64,000 nt of DNA from Candidatus Shapirobacteria bacterium (GTDB lineage: Bacteria; Patescibacteriota; Microgenomatia; 0-14-0-10-38-17): NCBI GenBank assembly GCA_018052565.1, contig JAGPNC010000002.1:6648-70647 (forward strand), in the 5' to 3' direction. The notes below the pieces were generated by a model. That model was not told the origin of the DNA, did not search any database, and worked only from the letters and a program-made list of their open reading frames with translations. Numbering within the stretch: position 1 is the first letter of the stretch; the number at the start of each line of letters is the position of its first letter. The translations under genes were made by a program, and so were the position numbers. Below are positions 1 to 59,672 of the stretch, piece by piece.

Positions 1-1
1 T

Positions 2-679
2 ATTCTTTTTGTCCGTCACGCCAGGTCAGAAAATGACGATGCCAATAGAAGACAGGGGCCGAATTCTAAATTGGGGGAGGTAGGGAGAAGGCAGGCGCTT
101 TTAGCGGCCGAAAGAGTAAACAGGATTATCCAAGAGGGCGATAACAAATATGACTTGATTATCACTAGCCCCTGGCTAAGGGCGCTAGAAACGGCAAAAG
201 TTATCGCTGGCAAGACAGGGATAAAAGTAGAAAAACACCCCTTAATCCATGAATATCTTTCTAATAAAATTCTTATAGACCAACCAATGGACAGCGATAT
301 CGTGAAGGAATTCAAGGAAGCAGCTAGAAATAAAGGTGTCAATCTTGACTGGAGATTCCGGGGAGAGGGGGAGTGCGTACGCGATGTTATTAACAGAGCA
401 ATTAATTTCAAAAATGAGCTATTAAGCAAATATTTGGGGAAGAATTGTTTGGTGGTTTCTCATGGTCTTTTTATTACCAGCTTTATTACGATACTGATGT
501 TGGGAGATCATTATGATGATGCCCAATTCCAGCAAATTTCCGAATTAATCCATTTAGAAAACACTTCTTTTAGCGAGGTGGAATATGACGAGTTTAATAA
601 AAGATGGCAGATTAAATATCTAAATGATTTTAGCCACTTAGAAAAAATATTTGCTAAGAACAAAATTACCCTCCCATAG
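2..679 (+). CDS. histidine phosphatase family protein (phosphoglycerate-mutase-like), 5' end outside window
   Basis: ORF 71-679 contains LIITSPWLRALETA and VVSHG motifs. The same frame stays open upstream to position 2 and encodes VRHARSE (an RHG-type catalytic motif), so the gene begins before the window. Confidence 0.65.
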   Translation: MLFVRHARSENDDANRRQGPNSKLGEVGRRQALLAAERVNRIIQEGDNKYDLIITSPWLRALETAKVIAGKTGIKVEKHPLIHEYLSNKILIDQPMDSDIVKEFKEAARNKGVNLDWRFRGEGECVRDVINRAINFKNELLSKYLGKNCLVVSHGLFITSFITILMLGDHYDDAQFQQISELIHLENTSFSEVEYDEFNKRWQIKYLNDFSHLEKIFAKNKITLP

Positions 680-6867: not shown

Positions 6868-7079
6868 TAGAAATTATTAAGTTGATTGGGTTTTTCTTTA
6901 GGCGTCATCCTGAACTTGGTTCAAGATCTGTTTTCAAAAAATATCAAGTATAATTCAAAAGTTAAAGGTCAAAATGCAAAATTACAAGTCAAAAGTTAAA
7001 AGTTTTCTTTGTTTTACTGCTTTACTTTTGAATTTTAACTTGCACTTTTGCCTTTTGACTTTTGAATTTTTAATTTTTT

Positions 7080-8243: not shown

Positions 8244-8507
8244 AATAAACAGAAGGTTTGTTTTTTTCTTAACTTTTGATTCTTAATTTTAGTTTTTGCT
8301 AATTAGCGATATTTTAAAGTCAAAATTAAAAAATTAAAATTTAAAATTACAAGTCAAAAGTTAAAAGTTTTTTTGCTTTACTACTTTACTTTTGAATTTT
8401 TACTTGTACTTTTAACTTTTAAATTTTGACTTTTAACTTTTATTATTATACCATTTTCCCCCCTTTTGTGGTAAGCTAACAAGACGGTTAAGTTTACTTT
8501 CTTGCCG

Positions 8508-9365
8508 ATGATTGATGTCCATGCTCACCTTAACTTTCAAGATTTTGCTAAGGATTACCAGGAAGTAGCTAAAGAGAGCTTTTCTTCGGGAGTAAAAGCG
8601 ATTATAAATATTGGTTCGAATTTTAAAACCTCCCAAAAAGCAGTTTTAATCGCTCAAGAAATTCCTTTTTGTTTTGCCAGTGTTGGTATTCACCCAATAC
8701 ACTATAATGAAGAGGAATTTAGTAAGAAAAAGTTTATTGATATTATAAATAATAGTAATGAAAAAGTAGTTGCTATCGGAGAAACGGGTTTCGATTACCA
8801 CCATTTGCCAAAAGAAGCCCCTCTGGCAATAGTTAAAAAATCACAAGAAGAGTTATTGGTAAGCCATTTGGAATTAGCTAAAAAATTTAATCTGCCGCTT
8901 ATTTTTCATTGCCGGGGGTCCGAAAATGATCCTTTTGGGGCTTATCTTGATTTGCTGGCGGTTTTAGAAAAATGGCGTGGTAAAATACAAGGCGAAGCCC
9001 CGCACCGTCTGGTACAGGGCAAAGTCCCGTACCGCATGGTACGGGGCGAAGTTCATTGTTTTTGCGGCAACGCCTTTTTAGCGGAAAAATTTTTAAATCT
9101 TGGTTTTTATCTTGGTTTTACCGGTAATATTACCTTTAAAAATATTGACGAGAGTTTGCTTGAGGCGGTTTCTTTTTGCCCGAAAGAAAGAATTTTAGCC
9201 GAAACTGACTGCCCTTATCTTGCCCCCGAGCCTTTTCGAGGCAAACGCAACCTTCCTCATTATGTAATTTATACGATCAAAAAGATTGCCCGGTTAAGAA
9301 AGGAGTCAATGGAGGAGACAGAGGTTTTATTAGAAGAAAATAGTCGGAGACTGTTCGGAATTTAA
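8508..9365 (+). CDS. tatD: TatD family metal-dependent hydrolase/DNase carrying an in-frame palindromic repeat insertion
   Basis: MIDVHAHLNF, GETGFDYH, HCRGS and HCFCGN motifs. The ORF track starts at TTG 8502; ATG 8508 is the more likely start. The insertion is listed separately at 8997-9050. Confidence 0.85.
   Translation: MIDVHAHLNFQDFAKDYQEVAKESFSSGVKAIINIGSNFKTSQKAVLIAQEIPFCFASVGIHPIHYNEEEFSKKKFIDIINNSNEKVVAIGETGFDYHHLPKEAPLAIVKKSQEELLVSHLELAKKFNLPLIFHCRGSENDPFGAYLDLLAVLEKWRGKIQGEAPHRLVQGKVPYRMVRGEVHCFCGNAFLAEKFLNLGFYLGFTGNITFKNIDESLLEAVSFCPKERILAETDCPYLAPEPFRGKRNLPHYVIYTIKKIARLRKESMEETEVLLEENSRRLFGI
8997..9050 (+). repeat. two tandem GC-rich mini-palindromes inside tatD, read in frame as APHRLVQG-K-VPYRMVRG
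   Basis: The first unit (gccccgcaccgtctggtacagggc) is an imperfect stem-loop. The second (gtcccgtaccgcatggtacggggc) has a perfect 8-bp stem, cccgtacc/ggtacggg. The same motif type (ccccgcaccgtatggtgc) recurs between genes at 9466-9495, 40610-40632, 41921-41945 and 54255-54285. Confidence 0.7.
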
Positions 9366-9472
9366 AAGTTCCCGCCTAAGGCGGGTCTCTGCCCAAGGCT
9401 GACCCCTTCCAAGGCGGGGCGCCTCTGGCGGAAAAAATTAAAAGTCCAAAGTTAAAAGTCAATCTGCCAACC
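9366..9472. repeat. GC-core double hairpin (three variants) plus AAAAGT hexamer run
   Basis: ttcccgcctaaggcgggtctctgcccaaggctgaccccttccaaggcggggcgcctctggcggaaaaaattaaaagtccaaagttaaaagtcaa. This matches the core copies at 23988, 26905, 26999, 29047 and 51291. Confidence 0.8.
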
Positions 9473-9499
9473 TTGCACCATTACGGTGCGGGGCTGGCG

Positions 9500-9685
9500 G
9501 GTAATTCAATTGTTCTAATCGCTCTAATTATTCTATCTAATTGACCTAAAGAAATTCCAAATCCCAATTCCCAAAATTACTTAAATAAAAAAATAAATCT
9601 ATTTGGGACTTTGGTGCTTGGGATTTATTTAGAAATTCGGTTAATTAGAATAATTAGAATAATTAGAATAATTTATCCCGTCGCC
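9500..9685 (-). repeat. palindromic element of about 170 bp that lacks a coding region (MITE-like), copy A, reverse orientation
   Basis: It is the reverse complement of the copies at 11531-11703 and 13586-13742. It ends in a fourfold taattagaa tandem (9641-9680). Its internal left half is roughly the reverse complement of its right half. Confidence 0.8.
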
Positions 9686-11530: not shown

Positions 11531-11703
11531 TGTGACGGGGTAAATTATTCTAATTATTCTAATTAACCGAATTTCTAAATAAACCCCAAGCACCAAAGTT
11601 CCAAATAGATTTATTTTTTATTTTTATTTAAGTAATTTTGGGAGTTGGGATTTGGAATTTCTCTAGGTCAATTAGAACAATTAGAGCAATTAGAATAATT
11701 TTT
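11531..11703 (+). repeat. palindromic MITE-like element of about 170 bp, copy B
   Basis: Near-identical to copy C. It sits between the two ABC exporter genes. Confidence 0.8.
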
Positions 11704-13585: not shown

Positions 13586-13742
13586 AATTATTCTAATTAT
13601 TCTAATTAACCGAATTTCTAAATAAATCCCAAGCACCAAAGTTCCAAATAGATTTATTTTTTATTTTTATTTAAGTAATTTTGGGAATTGGGATTTGTAA
13701 TTTCTTTAGGTCAATTAGAATAATTAGAGCAATTAAAATAAC
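13586..13742 (+). repeat. palindromic MITE-like element of about 170 bp, copy C
   Basis: aattattctaattattctaattaaccgaatttctaaataaatcccaagcaccaaagttccaaatagattt...ggtcaattagaataattagagcaattaaaataa. Confidence 0.8.
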
Positions 13743-15814: not shown

Positions 15815-15892
15815 GAAGGTTTGGTTGATAGACAATAGCTCCAAGTCGCACTTGAAAGGGAAAGTCATCCTAATAAAAATTAGAATATTATT

Positions 15893-15998
15893 TCAAATTC
15901 AAAATTCAAAATTTAAAATTTAAAATTAAAGTAAAAAGTAAAAAACTTTTTACTTTTAAATTGTAATTTTGCATTTTGACTTTTAACTTTTAACTTTT
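15893..15998. repeat. long imperfect AT-rich hairpin (AAAAGT/ACTTTT hexamer family)
   Basis: Left arm aaattcaaaatttaaaatttaaaattaaagtaaaaagtaaaaaac. Right arm tttttacttttaaattgtaattttgcattttgacttttaacttttaactttt. Confidence 0.75.
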
Positions 15999-16004
15999 AT
16001 TATC

Positions 16005-20930: not shown

Positions 20931-20937
20931 CTTTTAA

Positions 20938-21135
20938 AGTTAAAAGTCCAAAGTATAAAAATCTCAAAACTCAAATGGCAAATGTTAAAACTACAACTCA
21001 AAACTTAAATCTGAAAACACTTTTAAGTCTTAAAAAGTTTTGACATTTACCATTTAGTTTTGCGTTTTACCATTTGAGTTTTAAGATTTTATTTAGGTTT
21101 TGATCTTTGATTTTTGCATTTTGATTTTTCTTATT
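20938..21135. repeat. long imperfect hairpin, 'aaaactcaaatgg' variant of the intergenic repeat family
   Basis: Left arm (20945-21010) is taaaaatctcaaaactcaaatggcaaatgttaaaac.... Right arm (21040-21110) is gttttgacatttaccatttagttttgcgttttaccatttgagttttaagatttt. The reverse complement of the right arm is near-identical to 27033-27090. Confidence 0.75.
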
Positions 21136-23229: not shown

Positions 23230-23350
23230 AAAGTCAAAAGTTAAAATGCAAAAGTCAAAATTTCAAGTTAAAAGTTAAAAGTTTTTTTTGTTTTACTTTT
23301 GAATTTTTACTTGTACTTTTAACTTTTGAATTTTAACTTTTGACTTTTCT
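23230..23350. repeat. AAAAGT/ACTTTT hexamer hairpin
   Basis: aaagtcaaaagttaaaatgcaaaagtcaaaatttcaagttaaaagttaaaagt, a short loop, then ttttgaatttttacttgtacttttaacttttgaattttaacttttgactttt. Confidence 0.8.
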
Positions 23351-23969: not shown

Positions 23970-24092
23970 AAAAGTCAAAAGTTAAAATTTTCCGCCCAAG
24001 GCGGATCCGTCTCTGGCGGAAAAAGTCAAAAGTGCAAGTAAAAATTCAAAAGTAGCAAGGCAAAGAAACTTTTAACTTTTGAATTTTGAATT
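23970..24092. repeat. AAAAGT hexamer hairpin with GC core
   Basis: aaagtcaaaagttaaaattttccgcccaaggcggatccgtctctggcggaaaaagtcaaaagtgcaagtaaaaattcaaaagt ... acttttaacttttgaattttgaatt. Confidence 0.8.
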
Positions 24093-26865: not shown

Positions 26866-27125
26866 ATTAAAAGTCCAAAGTTAAAAGTTAAAAATTAAAA
26901 GTCAAAAATTCCCGCCCAAGGCGGGTCCGCCATGGGCGGAAAAAGTCAAAAGTTAAAAGTAAAAGAACAGATCAAAGAACAAAAATCAAAATGTCCCCCT
27001 AGGGCGGGGCGCCTCTGGCGGAAAAAGTATAAAAATCTCAAAACTCAAATGGCAAAACGCAAAACTAAATGGTAAATGTCAAAACTTTTAAGACTTAAAA
27101 GCGTTTTCAGATTTGAGCGCTGAAA
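26866..27125. repeat. composite repeat block: AAAAGT hexamers, two GC-core double hairpins and an 'aaaactcaaatgg' arm
   Basis: aaaagtccaaagttaaaagttaaaaattaaaagtcaaaaattcccgcccaaggcgggtccgccatgggcggaaaaagtcaaaagttaaaagt...ccccctagggcggggcgcctctggcggaaaaagtataaaaatctcaaaactcaaatggcaaaacgcaaaactaaatggtaaatgtcaaaactttt. Confidence 0.8.
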
Positions 27126-27162
27126 TCCTGTGATTTTTTGCTGCCAGCAAATGTAAGCTTAT

Positions 27163-27287
27163 TGTGGCTGGGACATAAATGTTATTTTGAGCCCGCCTTG
27201 GCGGGGGGAGAATCCCCTTGTATGAGATTCTTCAGTCGCTTACGCTCCTTCAGAATGACAGAAAAAGAATTATGTCCCAGCCACACT
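27163..27287. repeat. MITE-like palindromic element with terminal inverted repeats GTGGCTGGGACATAA / TTATGTCCCAGCCAC
   Basis: Both inverted repeats can be read directly. The interior contains ggggagaatcccc and cagaatgacag. Related ends occur at 19425-19480, 41878-42062 and 54212-54330. Confidence 0.7.
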
Positions 27288-27477
27288 ATTATATATCATC
27301 AGCTTAGTTTAAAGATGGGTTATAATTAGAGTGGGCTAAATAAAAATTTTTAATTTTGAATTGTCATTTTGCATTTTGACTTTTGAATTTTGATTTTTTA
27401 ACTTTAAGACCTTAGAATTTTTACCGATTTTGAGTTAGATTTTTAGCAAAACAAAAAAATATTATTTAAATTAAGTT

Positions 27478-30267
27478 ATGCTTTCTTTTCTTAAAAACAT
27501 TTTTGATGTTCAGGCGGCGGAGATTAAGCGCTTTTCCAAACTAGTGGAGAAAATTAATTTACAAGAAGAGGCGGTTAAGAAATTAAGCGACAAGGCGCTG
27601 GCGGCTAAGACGAAAGAGTTTACTTCTCGTCTGGAAAAAGAGCCGTTGGAATCTTTATTGACGGAGGCTTTTGCGGTGGTGCGCGAGGCATCGCGGCGAA
27701 CGATTGGCTTGCGTCATTTTGATGTTCAGCTGGTGGCGGCGGCGGCTCTTTTTGAAGGCAAAATTGCCGAGCAGAAAACCGGCGAGGGAAAAACTTTATC
27801 AGCCACGCCGGCGCTTTACCTTCGGGCGCTGGCAGGTAAGGGAGCGCATTTGGTAACCGTTAATGATTATTTGGCGCGGCGTGATGCGGGCTGGATGGGG
27901 CCAATATTCCATTTTTTGGGATTTTCGGTGGGCTGTTTAGTTCACGATCAGGCTTTTTTATTTGATCCTAATTTTTCTCAAGAAGCTGATGACCAGCGTT
28001 TGTCCCATTTGCGGCCGGTTTCAAGAAAAGAGGCTTATCAAGCGGATATTACTTATGGGACGAACAACGAGTTTGGCTTTGATTATCTTCGCGATAATTT
28101 AGTTTTCAATCTGCCCGATAAATCGCAGCGGGGTCATTATTTTGCGGTGGTAGACGAAGTTGACTTTGCCTTAATTGACGAGGCGAGAACCCCTTTGATT
28201 ATTTCTTCTCCTGAGCTTGAAGCGACCGATAAATATTATCAGTTTGCCCGGTTGGCCCGGGAGCTTAATAATGGGATTGATTATAAGGTTGATGAGGAAG
28301 CCAAGAATGTGCTTTTGACTGATCACGGCATTTCGAAGGTGGAAAAACGCCTCGGGGTGGAGAATCTTTATGAAAAAGATTTTGAAAGCATCCACCATTT
28401 AGAAAACGCCCTCAAGGCTAAGGAACTTTTTCGTCTTAACCGCGATTATGTAATTAAAGATGGCGAAGCGGTGATTGTGGATGAATTTACCGGCCGGTTA
28501 ATGTTTGGCAGGCGCTGGTCGGCGGGTTTGCATCAGGCGGTGGAGGCAAAAGAAGGGGTGAAAATCCAGCAGGAGTCAAAAACCTTAGCGACGATTTCTT
28601 TTCAGAATTACTTTCGTCTTTATGAAGTTCTGTCGGGGATGACAGGAACGGCCTATACCTCTCGAGAAGAGTTTAAGAAAATTTACGGCTTGGATACGCT
28701 GGTTATTCCTACTTATAAACCGATTAGAAGAATTGACCACCCTGACGCCATTTTTAAAACGCAACGGGCCAAATACACGGCGGTGGCTAACAAAGTGGAA
28801 GAGCTTCATAAAAAAGGCCAGCCGGTTTTGGTGGGGACAACTTCGATTGAGAAAAATGAGATCGTTTCAAGGCTTTTGGCCCATAAGGGTATTCCCCATC
28901 AGGTTTTAAATGCCAAAAACCATGAGAAGGAAGCGGGTGTGATTTCCCAGGCTGGGAAAAAGGGGGCGGTGACGGTGGCGACCAATATGGCCGGGAGGGG
29001 AGTAGATATTGTTTTGGGTGGAGAACCACCAAAAGAAAGTCAAAAGTCCCCGCCCAAGGCGGGTCCGCCTCTGGCGGAAAAAGTCCCCGCCCAAGGCGGG
29101 TCCGCCTCTGGCGGAAAAAGTTCAAAGCCAGAAAGACAGAATAGTAAAGAGGAGCAGCTAAGATGGCAGAAGGAGCATGAGGAAGTAATAAATCTGGGAG
29201 GGCTGTTTGTTTTAGGAACAGAGCGGCATGAAGCGAGGCGGATTGATAATCAACTACGCGGCCGTGCGGGTCGTTTGGGCGATCCGGGCGCTTCCCAGTT
29301 TTTTATTGCCCTAGACGATGATATGATGCGCGTTTTTGGTGGGGAGCAAATTGCCGGCTTGATGACCCGCTTTAATTTCCCCGATGACGTGCCGATTGAA
29401 AACAGCTTAATTAGCCGCTCTTTGGATCAGATTCAAGCCAAGGTAGAAAGCGTAAATTTTGATGCCCGTCGTTATCTGGTTGAATATGATGATGTTATCA
29501 ATAAGCAGCGGGAAGTTATTTATAAAATTAGGGATAAAGTTTTGCTTTGGGAGGAAGAAAAGAATTTTGCTGCTCTTAAAAAAGCAGTTTTGGAAAAAGT
29601 CAATCAAGAGCTGGAGGGGTTGGTTGATCGTTGTACTGATTATGCTAACGGCGAGAAAGGAAGGGTTGACGAGGGCGCCTTGTTGAATGAAGTTTTGGAA
29701 ATTATCCCCCTTCAGGATAAAGCAAGCTTAGGGAAAGAAATTCATCAGCAAGAGGCGGAGACGGTTAAGAAAATCTTGCATAATTTAGCCGAAAATTCCT
29801 GGCAAATGCTTGAGGAAAAAATAGGCAAGGATAATCTTCTTACCCTGGGCAAGTGGGTTTATCTTTCAACGATTGATCGTTTTTGGACAGAGCATCTTGA
29901 TAATATGGAGGCTTTGCGGGAAGGGATTTCGCTACGAGCTTATGGTCAGGAAAATCCTTTGGCGGCTTACAAAAAAGAGGCCTTTGAGGCTTTTGAAAAA
30001 TTAATGGCGGAGGTTGACTATCAGGTGAGCCGGCGGATTTTGCGCCTTGAGGTGAGAGAGCCTTCTTTTGTTTCCCCTTTCTCGGGTTTGGTTACTAACG
30101 CCGATCATTCTGACGGAATGGGGCTGGTTTCTGCTAATTTTGTGGGGCCATCAAGAAATGTTTCCCAGCCATTAGCGCCACGCCCTAAAACCCCAGGCCG
30201 TAATGATCTTTGCCCCTGCGGCAGCGGAAAAAAGTATAAGAAATGCTGTTATCCGAAATACGGGTAA
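27478..30267 (+). CDS. secA: preprotein translocase ATPase SecA carrying an in-frame repeat-element insertion
   Basis: DEAD-like motor motifs (KTGEGKTL, VTVNDYLARRD, DEVDFALIDEARTPLIIS, TNMAGRGVDIVLGG, GTERHEARRIDNQLRGRAGRLGDPG). The C-terminal Zn finger is CPCGSGKKYKKCC. Confidence 0.9.
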   Translation: MLSFLKNIFDVQAAEIKRFSKLVEKINLQEEAVKKLSDKALAAKTKEFTSRLEKEPLESLLTEAFAVVREASRRTIGLRHFDVQLVAAAALFEGKIAEQKTGEGKTLSATPALYLRALAGKGAHLVTVNDYLARRDAGWMGPIFHFLGFSVGCLVHDQAFLFDPNFSQEADDQRLSHLRPVSRKEAYQADITYGTNNEFGFDYLRDNLVFNLPDKSQRGHYFAVVDEVDFALIDEARTPLIISSPELEATDKYYQFARLARELNNGIDYKVDEEAKNVLLTDHGISKVEKRLGVENLYEKDFESIHHLENALKAKELFRLNRDYVIKDGEAVIVDEFTGRLMFGRRWSAGLHQAVEAKEGVKIQQESKTLATISFQNYFRLYEVLSGMTGTAYTSREEFKKIYGLDTLVIPTYKPIRRIDHPDAIFKTQRAKYTAVANKVEELHKKGQPVLVGTTSIEKNEIVSRLLAHKGIPHQVLNAKNHEKEAGVISQAGKKGAVTVATNMAGRGVDIVLGGEPPKESQKSPPKAGPPLAEKVPAQGGSASGGKSSKPERQNSKEEQLRWQKEHEEVINLGGLFVLGTERHEARRIDNQLRGRAGRLGDPGASQFFIALDDDMMRVFGGEQIAGLMTRFNFPDDVPIENSLISRSLDQIQAKVESVNFDARRYLVEYDDVINKQREVIYKIRDKVLLWEEEKNFAALKKAVLEKVNQELEGLVDRCTDYANGEKGRVDEGALLNEVLEIIPLQDKASLGKEIHQQEAETVKKILHNLAENSWQMLEEKIGKDNLLTLGKWVYLSTIDRFWTEHLDNMEALREGISLRAYGQENPLAAYKKEAFEAFEKLMAEVDYQVSRRILRLEVREPSFVSPFSGLVTNADHSDGMGLVSANFVGPSRNVSQPLAPRPKTPGRNDLCPCGSGKKYKKCCYPKYG
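29032..29125 (+). repeat. intergenic-type repeat (AAAAGT plus two 37-nt GC-core units) embedded in frame in secA
   Basis: aaagaaagtcaaaag, then tccccgcccaaggcgggtccgcctctggcggaaaaag twice (29047-29083 and 29084-29120). Because 37 is not a multiple of 3, the two copies are read in different frames, giving SPPKAGPPLAEK and VPAQGGSASGGK, between DIVLGG and GGLFVLGTERHE. Confidence 0.85.
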
Positions 30268-30269
30268 AA

Positions 30270-30385
30270 AAAATTCAAAATTCAAAAGTAAAAATGCAAA
30301 ATTACAAGTCAAAAGTTAAAAGTTTTTTTTGCTTCACTTTTTAATTTTAACTTGCACTTTTGACTTTTGAATTTTGAATTATAAC
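30270..30385. repeat. AAAAGT/ACTTTT hexamer hairpin
   Basis: aaaattcaaaattcaaaagtaaaaatgcaaaattacaagtcaaaagttaaaagt, a T-rich loop, then ctttttaattttaacttgcacttttgacttttgaattttgaatt. Confidence 0.8.
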
Positions 30386-30456
30386 TTTAGCCTTTACACT
30401 TTAAATTTTTTATAGCAGTATGAGGACTTTTTCGTTTATAATCTTTTTAACTATTT

Positions 30457-33699: not shown

Positions 33700-33830
33700 A
33701 ATGGAAGAAAAATTAAAAGTCAAAAGTTAAAAGTTAAAAGTCCAAGTAAAAATTCAAAAGTGAAGCAAAAAAAACTTTTGACTTTTAACTTGCAATTTTG
33801 AATTTTGCATTTTGACTTTTGAATTTATAA
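33700..33830. repeat. AAAAGT/ACTTTT hexamer hairpin
   Basis: aaagtcaaaagttaaaagttaaaagtccaagtaaaaattcaaaagtgaagc, aaaaaaa, then acttttgacttttaacttgcaattttgaattttgcattttgacttttgaattt. The arms are about 80% complementary. Confidence 0.8.
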
Positions 33831-33862
33831 CTTATTGTTTATTCAATTAAATGTTTTTAAAA

Positions 33863-41795: not shown

Positions 41796-42178
41796 AATTA
41801 TTTTAATTATTCTAATTGACCTAATTATTCTAAAGAAACCCCAAACGCCAAACCCCAAATTTTTAAATGATTTTTTTGCGACTGAGACATAATTCGTCAT
41901 TCTGACCCTGAGCAAAGCCCTGTACCAAACGGTGCGGGGCGAAGCAAGGGGAAGAATCCCCTCTGGAAATTATGTTTTAAAGGAGATCCTTCCCCCACTG
42001 TTGGCGGGGTCAGGATGACGCAGTGGACCCTGCTGCTCATTTATGTCACAGGGTCTTGTCGGCAGAAAGAATCATATTTTAGCCACGTTTTTATTTATAT
42101 TAATTTTGAGAATTGTGGCTTTGGGTGTTTTTTAGGTCAATTAGAATAATTAGAGCAATTAAGATAATTTTTTGATTT
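41796..42178. repeat. 170-bp MITE-like element interrupted by a nested GACATAA-TIR element
   Basis: Left part 41796-41876 (aattattttaattattctaattgacctaattattctaaagaaaccccaaacgccaaaccccaaat). Right part 42063-42178 (...ttttaggtcaattagaataattagagcaattaagataatttt). The nested insert 41878-42062 carries ctgagacataattcgtcattctgaccc ... ggggtcaggatgacgcag ... tttatgtcacag. Confidence 0.7.
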
Positions 42179-42261: not shown

Positions 42262-43665
42262 TTAAGTTCCCTTAATAACGGCTAAAGGCTTAAGCCGGGC
42301 AACTTTAGAGGTGAGCCCTTCTTTAACTAAAACATCAACTACTTCTTCGATGTCTTTATAGGCTCCGGGGGCTTCATCGGCAATTTTATGAAAGGGGAGA
42401 TTATAAATTATTTTCCCCATTGATTTTTCAAACTGGGGAAGACTGATATTTCTTTGGGCGGCGCGGCGGGACATCAGCCGGCCAGCGCCATGGTTAACGG
42501 AGTGGAAGGTATCCTTATTTTTAGAAGTGCCTACCACTACATACGAAGCGGTTCCCATGCTGCCGGGAATTAGGGCGGGGTGGCCGGTTTTAACAAAAGA
42601 GGGGGGATTTTGGGGGTGGTTAGGGGGAAGGGCGCGGGTGGCTCCTTTGCGATGGACTAAAACTTTTTGGCCAAGGTGATTTTCCCATTTGGCAATATTA
42701 TGAGCGACATCATAAAGAAGATAGAGGGGATCATTGTTGCCAAAGGTTTCCCGCCAAGCTTGGCGGACAAAATGGGTGATAATTTGCCGGTTTACAAAGG
42801 CAAAATTAACACAGGCGGCCATGGCGCCAAAATAACGTTCTCCTTCTGGGGTGGTGACAGGAAGAGCGGCTAGGCCTTGGTTAGGGATTGTTAGTTGGTA
42901 TTTTTCTTTTTTCCGCCAAAGAATTTGGGTGTAATCAAGGCAAGTTTGGTGGCCTAAGGCGCGGGAGCCGGTATGAATCATGACGGCGATTTGGTTAGGG
43001 AAAAGGCCGAATGCTTGGGCGATTTGCTTATTAAAAATCCGATCTACCTTTTGGATTTCGATAAAATGATTACCAGAGCCGAGAGTGCCCAGTTCGTTTT
43101 TAGCGCGGCTAATAGCTTTAGTGGAAAGGCAGGAAAATTCTGCTTCTTCCATGCGACCGTTTTCCTCGGTTCTTTCCAAATCTTCTCTCTGCGCCAAGCC
43201 CTTTTCTACCATATAAAAAAGTCCTTTCCGGCAAACTTTTTCTAGAGAAAGGCCAAGATGCCCTTTCTGCTGTCCTCCCAAGCCTAAGGGGACAAATTGG
43301 CTGATCTTTTCGATTAATTGCCGTAATAGAGAAGGGGTGAAAACTTCTTTGTCGTAAACTTGCTGGGAAAGAAGAAGGCGCACGCCGCAATTAATATCCA
43401 TTCCCACAGCGCCAGCAGAAACTAATCCTTGCGTTGCCATCACGCCACCAATTGGCAGGCCAAAACCTTCGTGGATATCCGGCATTCCCAATACTGGTGA
43501 AATTACTTTTGGTAAACAGGAGGCGGCAATTAATTGTTCCAAGCTCCTATCTTCCTGGATTGGCTTTAAGAGTTTTTCGGAGGCGTAGATGACGACTTCG
43601 GCCTGCATTAACCCGCTTTTTTTAATCCGCCATTTTTGAGGGGAGAGAGACTCAAGGCTAAACAT
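42262..43665 (-). CDS. rtcB: RNA-splicing ligase RtcB
   Basis: Metal and GMP-histidine motifs: DIHEGFGLPIGGV, HTGSRALGHQ, HNIAKWENH, NHGAGR. Confidence 0.9.
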   Translation of the reverse strand: MFSLESLSPQKWRIKKSGLMQAEVVIYASEKLLKPIQEDRSLEQLIAASCLPKVISPVLGMPDIHEGFGLPIGGVMATQGLVSAGAVGMDINCGVRLLLSQQVYDKEVFTPSLLRQLIEKISQFVPLGLGGQQKGHLGLSLEKVCRKGLFYMVEKGLAQREDLERTEENGRMEEAEFSCLSTKAISRAKNELGTLGSGNHFIEIQKVDRIFNKQIAQAFGLFPNQIAVMIHTGSRALGHQTCLDYTQILWRKKEKYQLTIPNQGLAALPVTTPEGERYFGAMAACVNFAFVNRQIITHFVRQAWRETFGNNDPLYLLYDVAHNIAKWENHLGQKVLVHRKGATRALPPNHPQNPPSFVKTGHPALIPGSMGTASYVVVGTSKNKDTFHSVNHGAGRLMSRRAAQRNISLPQFEKSMGKIIYNLPFHKIADEAPGAYKDIEEVVDVLVKEGLTSKVARLKPLAVIKGT

Positions 43666-51196: not shown

Positions 51197-51352
51197 AAAG
51201 TTAAATTCAAAATGCAAAAGTCAAAATGCAAAATTCCAAGTTAAAAGTTAAAAGTCTTTTTGCATTACTTTTGAATTTTTACTTGTAATTTTTCCGCCAG
51301 AGGCGGACCCGCCTTGGGCGGGGAGTTTTAAATTTTAACTTTTAACTTTGAT
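51197..51352. repeat. AAAAGT hexamer hairpin plus inverted GC core
   Basis: aaagttaaattcaaaatgcaaaagtcaaaatgcaaaattccaagttaaaagttaaaagt ... acttttgaatttttacttgtaatttttccgccagaggcggacccgccttgggcgggg. The GC core is the reverse complement of the secA-embedded unit. Confidence 0.8.
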
Positions 51353-56972: not shown

Positions 56973-57004
56973 AATTCTTTTTTTAGTATAACAGAATTGT
57001 TAAT

Positions 57005-57125
57005 TTAAAAGTTAAAATTCAAAATGCAAAATTCAAAATTGCAAGTCAAAAGTTAAAAGTTTTTGCTTTAATTTTGAATTTTTAATTGCAATTTTGATTT
57101 TTGACTTTTAACTTTTGAATTTAAA
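57005..57125. repeat. AAAAGT/ACTTTT hexamer hairpin
   Basis: aaaagttaaaattcaaaatgcaaaattcaaaattgcaagtcaaaagttaaaagt ... ttttgaatttttaattgcaattttgatttttgacttttaacttttgaattt. Confidence 0.8.
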
Positions 57126-58791: not shown

Positions 58792-59559
58792 ATGGCTGAA
58801 AACAAAGGCTCTCTTTTTCTCTCGGTAGTCATTCCCTGCTACAACGAAGAAGAAAATTTGAAACGGGGAGTTTTAAAAGAGGTGGCTGACTACCTTGGGA
58901 AACAGAAATATTCTTGGGAAGTAATCATCTCCGATGATGGCTCTAGCGATAAGAGCAAGGAGCTGGCGCGAAATTTTGTCAAAAATCAGCCCGGCTTCCT
59001 TTTGCTTGAAAATCGGCATGGAGGAAAACCTTATGCGGTTTGGCAGGGGATCAAAAAGGCCCGTGGAGAAATTGTTTTGTTTACCGATATGGACCAGTCA
59101 ACTCCGATTAGGGAAATAGAAAAGCTTTTGCCTTATTTTAAAAAGGGTTATGAGGTGGTTATCGGTTCAAGAGGCTGGAAACGAAGTGGCGCTCCACTTT
59201 ACCGCCAATTAGCGGCTTTTATTTTTTTGCAAGTGCGACGGCTTCTTCTCTTGCCGGAAATTGTTGATACCCAATGCGGTTTCAAGGCTTTTAAAACAAA
59301 AGTGGCTCAAGAACTTTTCCCTAAACTTTCGGTTTTGGAAAACTGGCAAGAAGCTTCCGGCTGGCGGGTAACCGCCTTTGATGTGGAGCTTTTGTTTTTA
59401 GCCAAAAAAAAGGGTTATAAGATTAAAGAGGTGCCGGTTTTATGGCAAGACGAAGATGTGGCTTCAGGCAAAAATAAAAGCTTTGTTAAGGAGTCGCGAC
59501 AGATGCTGGAGCAAATTATTAACGTTAGAAAAAACGAGCGGAAAGGGAAATACCAATAA
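58792..59559 (+). CDS. family 2 glycosyltransferase (Dpm1-like)
   Basis: LSVVIPCYNEEENL...IISDDGSSDKS...FTDMDQSTP. Confidence 0.8.
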   Translation: MAENKGSLFLSVVIPCYNEEENLKRGVLKEVADYLGKQKYSWEVIISDDGSSDKSKELARNFVKNQPGFLLLENRHGGKPYAVWQGIKKARGEIVLFTDMDQSTPIREIEKLLPYFKKGYEVVIGSRGWKRSGAPLYRQLAAFIFLQVRRLLLLPEIVDTQCGFKAFKTKVAQELFPKLSVLENWQEASGWRVTAFDVELLFLAKKKGYKIKEVPVLWQDEDVASGKNKSFVKESRQMLEQIINVRKNERKGKYQ

Positions 59560-59672
59560 AAGTTAAAAGTCAAAAGTTAAAAGTCAAAATTGCAAGTAAA
59601 AATTCAAAAGTAAAGCGAAATTTAACTTTTAAATTGTAATTTTAACTTTTGACTTTTAACTTTTGAATTTAC
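59560..59672. repeat. AAAAGT/ACTTTT hexamer hairpin
   Basis: aaagttaaaagtcaaaagttaaaagtcaaaattgcaagtaaaaattcaaaagtaaagcgaaatttaacttttaaattgtaattttaacttttgacttttaacttttgaattt. Confidence 0.8.

Follow-up and report, generated by a model that had tools for sequence, protein, structure and literature searches.

A 30-nt double-hairpin repeat within the secA gene of a Candidatus Shapirobacteria bacterium

The secA insert and its counterparts in the window

The stretch of DNA analyzed here, referred to as the window, comprises 64,000 nucleotides of contig JAGPNC010000002.1 (assembly GCA_018052565.1, positions 6,648 to 70,647 of the forward strand) from a Candidatus Shapirobacteria bacterium of the Patescibacteria, or Candidate Phyla Radiation (CPR). 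Its secA gene carries a tandem pair of a GC-rich palindromic repeat that is otherwise present in the spacers between genes. The gene occupies positions 27478..30267 of the forward strand as an uninterrupted open reading frame (ORF) and encodes a protein of 929 residues, which matches the SecA chains of T. maritima, B. subtilis and E. coli in the PDB over the full length with E values of about 1e-229 (phmmer). The Pfam domains found in it (SecA_DEAD, PP_bind, P-loop_SecA, SecA_SW and SEC-C) represent the DEAD motor, the preprotein-binding domain, the helical wing and scaffold and the C-terminal zinc finger of SecA.

The repeat pair lies between the SecA motifs DIVLGG and GTERHE, where a first-pass annotation of the sequence had correctly placed it. 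Tandem Repeats Finder describes it as a perfect array at 29042-29121 (period 37, 2.2 copies, 100% matches), in accord with the tandem arrangement given in that annotation. Compared with the closest SecA genes, the net insertion is 75 nt (29044..29118, forward strand) and corresponds to residues 523-547, KSPPKAGPPLAEKVPAQGGSASGGK. On the 5' side, at 29035..29048, is heptamer-like DNA, GAAAGTCAAAAGTC, that codes for E S Q K S; it is followed by a double hairpin, CCCGCCcaaGGCGGG TCCGCCtctGGCGGA, at 29049..29078, which has no mismatches to the consensus of the element. An AAAAGTC heptamer at 29079..29085, which belongs to the target and not to the element, separates it from a second copy at 29086..29115, identical to the first, and heptamer-like coding DNA, AAAAGTTCAAAG, follows at 29116..29127 and is, by flank statistics, the source of the AAAAG found 3' of the element. 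The order, with ^ as the junction, is AAAAGTC^[30]AAAAGTC^[30]AAAAGTT; the A-rich flanking motif, previously taken for a hexamer, is the heptamer AAAAGTC. As had also been noted, the two units are translated in different frames, the first as SPPKAGPPLAEK and the second as VPAQGGSASGGK: copy 1 is read in frame +1 (PPKAGPPLAE) and copy 2 in frame 0 (PAQGGSASGG).

The recurrence of the core in intergenic spacers was likewise confirmed, in five of them. A 35-mer core with at most 3 mismatches is matched five times in the window (23991, 26911, 29049, 29086 and, on the reverse strand, 51288) versus 0 times in 100 shuffles, and the single-hairpin motif CCGCCNNNGGCGG is matched 20 times versus 1.5 expected (13-fold). 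A Hamming scan returned copies at 23991, 26911, 26993, 29049, 29086 and 51293 (reverse) and none in 20 shuffles. The secA pair are the only copies within a gene. Among the intergenic ones, those at 23991..24020 (3 mismatches) and 26911..26940 (loops CAA/ATG, 5' of secA) are on the forward strand within AAAAGTY heptamer arrays, that at 26993..27022 (forward) is degenerate, CCCCCtagGGCGGG GCGCCtctGGCGGA, and that at 51293..51322 on the reverse strand has a 30-nt core identical to the secA copies. A composite at 9366..9435 (forward), directly after the stop codon of the TatD gene, combines a single intact first hairpin with decayed hairpins and a variant of the second. The loop pair CAA/TCT is the commonest variant of the element in this genome.

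In an alignment of 40 homologues, the three nearest SecA proteins (P0002-P0004, 83-86% identical) lack exactly the 25 residues of the insert, and most of the remaining best 40 likewise do without it. The interval from DIVLGG to GTERH measures 225 nt in the window versus 150 nt in the gene for P0003 (locus L002), and the flanks of the two genes match codon for codon (...GAA AGT CAA [75 nt] AGT TCA AAG...). The expected lineage-specific insertion of about 25 residues is thus borne out. Its absence from close relatives and the identity of its DNA with the intergenic copy at 51293-51322 also show that it is not ancestral protein sequence, the possibility that had been named as refuting an insertion.

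Two further assemblies contain this locus from the same species. An independent assembly from JGI (3300007465, L152; protein P0122 of the 90% SecA cluster) has the same two-copy insert, and its 17.5 kb of overlap with the window are 99.4% identical. An assembly from ENA (ERZ27275284 k141_6694, L151; 7369-7540 versus window 29005-29170) is 99.25% identical and has one 37-nt unit, which shifts the frame and splits secA into parts of 548 + 330 aa (P0123 + P0121). The presence of the element in secA is reproducible across assemblies. The objection that the insert is an assembly chimera is therefore met by the independent two-copy sequence as far as presence is concerned, but the single unit with its broken frame keeps it alive for copy number.

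Other species carry related copies in the same loop of SecA: one (L003) has a stem variant of its own, TGGGCC..GGCCCA, plus a decayed twin, and two others (L148 and L149) each have a single-hairpin remnant. The linker coding DNA in the Shapirobacteria relatives consists of AAAAGTT-type heptamers (K-V-K/Q-S-S-K-L-K-V-Q-S). The Shapirobacteria SecA linker is a recurrent landing pad for the element because it is made of the heptamer that the element prefers as a target.

When aligned to T. maritima SecA with HMMER, residues 514 and 570 of the window protein correspond to residues 541 and 544 of the chain, which has about 2 residues in place of the linker. As residues 514-570 remain unaligned, that structure has no counterpart to the linker as a whole. 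The AlphaFold2 model, for which 60 homologues were used (mean pLDDT 77.9), shows coil at residues 503-549, pLDDT below 50 at 522-551 and a confident helix at 550-572. The insert is hence predicted to reside in a disordered surface loop, in line with the earlier prediction of a surface loop of nucleotide-binding domain 2. The linker is the variable ('VAR') subdomain of this domain, which E. coli SecA has and B. subtilis SecA lacks. Das et al. (2012, J Bacteriol 194:2205, as cited in PMC13178939) reportedly found a regulatory role for the subdomain, which in E. coli SecA regulates ADP release.

Boundaries, structure and targets of the repeat unit

The extent of the unit can be read from tRNA genes in which filled and empty sites stand side by side. 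At three loci, an intact tRNA-Ser(CGA) gene has a partial duplicate just upstream that carries the element in its anticodon loop; the filled loop is CTCG[CCCGCC...GGCGGA]AAAAGCGG and the empty one CTCGAAAAGCGG. Exact pairs of this kind, CTCG^AAAAGCGG, differing by 30 nt and free of a target-site duplication (TSD), are present in L006 and L021. A tandem of three tRNA-Val genes in L100 shows the same difference of 30 nt, here in the D-loop, GCTCAGTT^GGTTAGAGC. Therefore, the boundaries enclose exactly 30 nt and the target is not duplicated. Judged by these pairs, the repeat unit is the 30-mer CCCGCCnnnGGCGGG|TCCGCCnnnGGCGGA, or 10 codons, and not the 37 nt of the first-pass annotation; the extra 7 nt are the target heptamer. 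The claim that the frame of secA is restored in spite of a unit that is not a multiple of 3 stands insofar as the frame is open, but the puzzle in it arose because the heptamer had been counted into the unit: 30 nt being ten codons, each insertion keeps the reading frame by itself. The idea that the heptamer arrays are footprints or target duplications of the insertion was dropped in view of the same filled and empty pairs. The idea that the tRNA-embedded copies are introns was dropped as well, as their hosts are truncated or redundant copies adjoining intact genes.

Copies that sit exactly in the D-, anticodon- or T-loop of a partial or duplicated tRNA gene, each beside an intact copy, are found in L006 (70-175), L021 (7790-7900), L027 (4815-4890), L036 (2425-2690), L010 (7926), L071 (1013), L118 (1544), L095 (638), L100 (5888 and 6000), L129 (560) and L144 (2241). 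The tRNA fragments concerned often amount to just 5-9 nt of tRNA sequence on one side and are regularly paired with local duplications.

As single-stranded DNA, the 30-mer folds into two hairpins with 6-bp stems and 3-nt loops (-13.1 kcal/mol, z = -4.8), and the secA dimer can form one long hairpin as RNA (-48.9 kcal/mol, z = -6.4). Among the matches listed, the loop sequence is nearly always NNA in hairpin 1 and TNN in hairpin 2, which makes the second hairpin an inverted twin of the first that differs only in the closing pair. The 1.06 Mb of fetched loci contain 149 canonical double hairpins, and shuffled sequence contains 0. About 14 further variants differ by compensatory stem changes (e.g. 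TCAGCC/GGCTGA, TTCGCC/GGCGAA, TCGGCC/GGCCGA and CCAGCC/GGCTGG), and their comparison shows that the stems are maintained by such changes.

A flank-free scan of metagenome contigs yielded at least 120 stretches with at least 126 copies. Among the matches listed, AAA is enriched 11.7-fold on the 3' side and TTT 5-fold on the 5' side, with TG^AA, TT^AA and TC^AA as the commonest junctions; the 5' flanking 4-mers are CTTT, CTTC, AGCT, TATG and similar. These flanks show a preference for T[G/T/C]^AA(A) that is real but loose. In 14.8% of the copies versus 0.9% of random junctions, the two flanks can pair with each other over 6 bp or more, a count that may be inflated by co-amplification with host repeats; such copies include those at the apices of GTAG-type repetitive extragenic palindromic (REP) hairpins and of a second family of palindromes. 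Of 158 copies, 17 have a tRNA gene no more than 300 nt away versus 5.1 expected, and on inspection most of these occupy the D-, anticodon- or T-loop of a tRNA copy that is partial or redundant. Others reside in tandem arrays of 7-8-mers, including AAAAGTC-type arrays in Omnitrophota, and the 7-nt spacing between tandem elements recurs in L081 and L111. Taken together, the sites as sequenced show a strong preference for short, single-strand-prone DNA, namely hairpin loops and short tandem arrays.

Several of these host repeats deserve a description of their own. The element ([el]) occupies the apex of a GTAG-type REP, cGTAGGGGCGGAGCTTy[el]AGCTCCGCCC, in L033, L034, L048, L059, L060, L085, L097, L119, L121 and L134, and that of a second palindrome, CCGCTCACCCTGAGCy[el]TGTCGAAGGGCGAGCG, in L037, L039, L040, L069, L076 and L137. 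It may have spread further by hitch-hiking within these repeats. In the window, about 14 spacers contain an (AAAAGTY / AAAATTC)n array followed 10-60 nt downstream by the complementary (RACTTTT)n, which together make imperfect inverted repeats of 50-60 bp; these include 6952-7078, 8316-8442, 15890-15999, 20936-21129, 23230-23348, 30270-30388, 33708-33833, 51197-51349, 57002-57122 and 59557-59670. Outside the window, AAAAGTC-type arrays adjoin the element as well, in Omnitrophota and further metagenome-assembled genomes (MAGs; L005, L007, L016 and L120).

Copies in other phyla and within other genes

The pattern CCCGCCNNNGGCGGGTNNNCCNNNGGNNNAAAAAG was scanned over one genome per species and matched 24 loci, versus approximately 0.02 expected in random sequence by our own arithmetic. 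According to the record titles, these belong to Omnitrophota, Saccharibacteria, Magasanik-, Komeili-, Yanofsky- and Doudnabacteria, Paceibacterota, Verrucomicrobiota, Planctomycetia, Syntrophaceae and Deltaproteobacteria, Thermodesulfovibrionales and Gammaproteobacteria. The free positions of the pattern are almost always filled as in TCCGCCnnnGGCGGA. The matches show that the element family occurs in many bacterial phyla and is not specific to one genome.

A set of 155 non-redundant copies includes 97 that fall within stop-free frames of 150 codons or more. Frame 0 of the forward orientation, PAxGGSAxGG, accounts for 37 copies and frame 0 of the reverse orientation, SAxGGPAxGG, for 25, so that these two readings make up 64% of the open-frame copies. 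Frame +1 is read in 13 copies forward (PPxAGPPxAE) and in 10 reverse (PPxADPPxAG), and the Arg-rich frame +2 in 12 of both orientations, many of which are probably spurious frames in GC-rich DNA. This bias fits selection for a harmless peptide rich in Gly, Ser and Ala. Host proteins confirmed with Pfam are RecG, GyrA, DnaJ, RpiB, the ATP synthase beta subunit (AtpD), an NadB-like flavoprotein and ArgRS. In RpiB the copy directly follows the start codon (ATG^AAA). One site in RecG (HGK[M/L]^K) and one in DnaJ (behind the J domain) are shared by hosts that are merely 43-50% identical, which suggests either reuse of a hot spot or very strong conservation of the element.

Within residues ~26-100, the ATP synthase beta ORF in L049 has the 10-residue element after VVDVHF and, in the region of the N-terminal barrel, a further insert of about 45 aa rich in Gly, Pro and Ala (…SNHSAASGGTPPFKGGGASQVNRGASHPAKGEYPAKQGEG…). 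The latter suggests repeated colonisation by GC-rich repeats.

Origin of the insert and relation to known repeats

The explanation that we favor, and hold to be probable, is that the secA insert consists of two copies of a non-coding, mobile, 30-nt double-hairpin repeat that landed in heptamer-like linker DNA, where the frame was kept and the loop was tolerant. The earlier proposal, in which a palindromic repeat from the spacers invaded a SecA linker that is tolerant and variable in length, is upheld by the restriction of the insert to this lineage, by the predicted loop and by the identical intergenic DNA. Both copies would have entered AAAAGTY heptamer-like DNA coding for the variable linker, each preserving the frame with its 10 codons. 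The 25 extra residues, rich in Pro, Ala, Gly, Ser and Lys, would be tolerated because the linker is a disordered surface loop, and judging by the open frame and the bias in frame use, the insert is most likely translated as part of SecA. The element would spread by a cut- or copy-and-paste reaction supplied in trans, and copies within ORFs would survive only in those frames and places where the peptide is harmless. By analogy with IS200/IS605, RAYT/REP (RAYT, REP-associated tyrosine transposase) and IS91, the mobiliser may be an HUH-type single-strand DNA nuclease or transposase that recognises both hairpins, although we propose this tentatively. The dimer could have arisen by two separate 30-nt insertions at consecutive heptamers, with all intermediates in frame, or by recombination between heptamer arrays that brought in an intergenic [core-AAAAGTC-core] block in a single step. 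A third route would be a 37-nt duplication, whose one-unit intermediate is out of frame, as in L151; the frameshifted secA of that assembly shows that a state with a single 37-nt unit would not be viable.

The strongest competitor, unlikely in our judgment yet not negligible, derives the secA dimer from copying driven by homology (gene conversion, template switching or slippage between the heptamer-like linker and an intergenic heptamer array in which [core-AAAAGTC-core] was already present) or from a 37-nt duplication of a single insert. In the window the element is always embedded in AAAAGTY arrays, the linker of secA is itself heptameric in the relatives, the two units match at 100% of their positions, cores in tandem at a distance of 7 nt exist in L081 and L111 as well, and the L151 assembly differs from the window by exactly one 37-nt unit, evidence that slippage by 37 nt occurs in vivo or in silico. 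However, a duplication has to pass through the non-viable one-unit state that splits secA into P0123 and P0121, and elsewhere the element has inserted without flanking homology (ATG^AAA in RpiB, the tRNA loops). Moreover, as CAA/TCT is the commonest local variant, identical copies do not require duplication. That an assembler spliced the repeat into secA or invented its copy number is the least credible of the alternatives, even though the source is a short-read MAG and the ENA assembly has one unit rather than two. The NCBI MAG and the JGI and ENA assemblies (3300007465 and ERZ27275284) all place the element at the same position with identical flanks, the 80-nt array is shorter than a read, secA is contiguous on both sides and in frame in the two-copy form, and other species have related insertions in the same loop.

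Removal of the insert at the level of RNA, by splicing and religation, or its skipping by translational bypass is hardly more plausible. The very stable RNA structure (-48.9 kcal/mol), the gene for an RtcB RNA ligase in the window and the copies within tRNA-gene loops would suit such a process, but the length divisible by 3, the open frame in 97 of 155 copies and the bias to two benign frames would then be superfluous. Furthermore, the tRNA hosts are truncated or redundant and adjoin an intact gene, neither a bulge-helix-bulge nor an intron-like feature is present, and Rfam gives no match. A useful role of the insert in SecA, as a flexible linker that tunes the ATPase or as an mRNA structure that paces translation rather than a neutral passenger, is somewhat less remote but still improbable. 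Related or decayed copies do occupy the same loop in several Shapirobacteria lineages, and the regulatory role reported for the subdomain by Das et al. would suit such a function; the recurrence, however, is explained by a linker made of the preferred heptamer target, close relatives do without the insert, and identical DNA is found in spacers and in unrelated proteins in both orientations.

A number of observations weigh against a mobile 30-nt element as the source of the insert or complicate its case. In secA itself, 15 of the 75 extra nucleotides are heptamer-like DNA and not element, the exact pre-insertion state of the loop was not seen among the relatives compared, and the single unit of L151 indicates a copy number that is either polymorphic or prone to assembly error. 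Beyond secA, all genome matches are MAGs with no isolate among them, the uniform stems in L028-L147 are partly a matter of construction as the search pattern fixed them, and the frame bias could in part stem from the target preference for in-frame AAA or TTT codons and not from selection on the peptide. With regard to the mobilising enzyme, neither the roughly 30 window ORFs searched with Pfam nor the precomputed list includes a transposase or recombinase, the genes being housekeeping ones. First and second half-sites 0.8-3 kb apart enclosed ordinary genes in every pair and no transposase. The 150 ORFs within 2.5 kb of elements elsewhere fall into 143 families, none of which recurs more than 3 times, and the 25 of 143 listed include no transposase. 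No orientation bias was detected relative to the sign of the local GC skew, a crude proxy (50 versus 53 copies), and a flank profile showed no GTAG/CGTC tag beside the element, GTAG being confined to the outer REP that hosts some copies.

More specific partners were also absent. Genes for RtcB, RuvABC and a TatD nuclease are present in the window according to Pfam. No RAYT gene was found in the window, among the families listed for the 150 neighboring ORFs or between half-sites, and an autonomous relative with the same ends and a TnpA gene was found neither between half-sites nor in 2.9 million viral contigs, which gave 1 match. A phage origin is unsupported by that same single match. Rfam returned sub-threshold chance matches (E ~0.1-0.4), and a window scan at the gathering threshold found just one tRNA. 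Searches of the literature by sequence, by peptide and for CPR repeats, whose coverage was incomplete, produced no prior description of the element.

The closest precedent in kind is that of the Rickettsia palindromic elements (RPEs; Ogata et al. 2000, summarised in PMC3733652), which are palindromic, occur both between genes and in frame within functional and often essential genes, and are read as an extra peptide in tolerant surface regions. The window presents the same picture, with the repeat in noncoding DNA and in an intact ORF, relatives without the insert and a loop predicted to be tolerant. However, RPEs measure about 100-150 bp and are essentially confined to Rickettsia, whereas the present element has 30 nt, two minimal hairpins, clean TSD-less boundaries with a target preference and a range of many phyla. 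Assignment to the RPE family proper (RPE-1..8) was rejected given this size, the CPR taxon and nothing related in Rfam. A classical miniature inverted-repeat transposable element, with terminal inverted repeats, a TSD and 70-300 bp, was rejected also, as the element has 30 nt and no TSD.

REPs and bacterial interspersed mosaic elements, associated with RAYT transposases (Bertels & Rainey 2011, PMC3116915) and including intragenic ones with GTAG or CGTC tags (Di Nocera et al. 2013, PMC3733652), are GC-rich hairpins of 20-40 bp, often dimers and mostly extragenic; a minority are in frame in ORFs, many of them for replication or repair, and a dimer then contributes 20-30 aa to the protein. Our element resembles them in GC-rich hairpins, dimers, in-frame copies and presumed mobilisation in trans. 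It differs in that it has no GTAG/CGTC tag and no RAYT nearby, that its stems are conserved across phyla whereas a REP family usually stays within one species or genus, and that at several loci it is a guest at the apex of a GTAG-type REP and not the REP itself. Palindromic amphipathic repeat coding elements (PARCELs; 2010, PMC2996958) share dyad-symmetric coding repeats and a patchy distribution suggestive of horizontal transfer, but are 75-nt (25-aa) tandem domains of surface proteins and not short insertions in housekeeping genes, RNA loops and spacers.

HUH transposition in IS200/IS605 and their miniature derivatives, the palindrome-associated transposable elements (PATEs), involves a hairpin at each end, no TSD, a short preferred target and single-strand-prone DNA. 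The element has two hairpins, no TSD (L006, L021 and L100) and an affinity for single-strand-prone DNA, and its flank preference, T[G/T/C]^AA(A), is real but loose; no guide and cleavage-site architecture was identified in it. Its 30 nt leave no room for the guide and cleavage-site spacing of IS608 ends, no TnpA/TnpB partner was found, and the orientation bias with GC skew that IS200/IS605 normally show is missing. Elhai and colleagues reportedly described in 2008 (Genome Res) small dispersed repeats of Nostoc, SDR4-6, that are 21-27 nt long, form hairpins and bear signs of mobility with no known transposase. These too are very small and often nested in tandem heptamer repeats and in other repeats, but they are cyanobacterial and of different sequence. 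Among fungal mitochondrial elements, the GC clusters of yeast and the double-hairpin elements (DHEs) of Allomyces likewise combine two adjacent GC-rich hairpins in an AT-rich genome and are mobile in spacers, RNA genes and reading frames; they are organellar and unrelated in sequence, and no phylogenetic link is expected. Compared with all of these, the element sets itself apart by its size, frame neutrality, clean boundaries, targeting of tRNA loops and sequence conservation across phyla.

The window also holds repeats of other kinds. A 9-mer, TAATTAGAA, and its complement, AATTATTCT, form arrays on either side of the ABC-transporter genes, two in tandem, and of the RtcB gene (9642-9673, 11543-11565, 11669-11700, 13586-13608, 13713-13741, 41796-41833 and 42139-42169) and constitute a second, unrelated spacer repeat system. 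The RtcB-family RNA ligase gene itself is at 42262-43665 on the reverse strand (Pfam E = 2e-145), with no evidence tying it to removal of the element from RNA. The TatD ORF (8502-9365) contains at 8986-9052 an in-frame tandem of 2.5 units of 27 nt with a different GC hairpin, CCCGTACCgcaTGGTACGGGG, which encodes GKIQGEAPHRLVQGKVPYRMVRGE; this may be a second kind of in-gene repeat insertion, and a similar motif is found at ~9470-9500. Upstream of secA, at 27090-27330, a 16-nt inverted repeat, TGTGGCTGGGACATAA ... TTATGTCCCAGCCACA, surrounds about 90 nt with a GC hairpin, GAGCCCGCCTTGGCGGGGGG. This structure has no Rfam match and could be a small RNA or another repeat.

In summary, the phenomenon is known in kind from RPEs and intragenic REPs, and what is new is its unusually small, frame-neutral and cross-phylum form. 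It is possible, although we put it at somewhat less than an even chance, that the element represents an undescribed class of ultra-small mobile DNA that is frame-neutral and TSD-less, seeks hairpin loops and T^AAA sites, is moved in trans by a possibly widely shared or host enzyme and, as a by-product, leaves flexible PAxGGSAxGG or SAxGGPAxGG linkers in essential proteins of CPR bacteria, Omnitrophota and further uncultured lineages. If the cross-phylum spread and the TSD-less boundaries hold, it would be among the smallest mobile units known, with a conservation far beyond that of species-specific REPs, and this would point to either a promiscuous mobilising enzyme or horizontal spread among co-resident bacteria of groundwater and sediment. 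The preference for hairpin loops, including those of tRNA genes, provides a directly testable handle on the mechanism. The element is also a source of annotation and assembly errors, as in the one assembly in which secA is split by a collapsed or slipped unit; it inflates the apparent divergence of proteins and could serve as a strain marker. For protein evolution, it means that 30 nt of selfish DNA can lengthen an essential motor protein by 10-25 residues even where the genome is that of a reduced CPR bacterium, and its recurrence in the same SecA loop, as well as in RecG, DnaJ, GyrA and ATP synthase, is a concrete example of how linkers and variable subdomains become longer.

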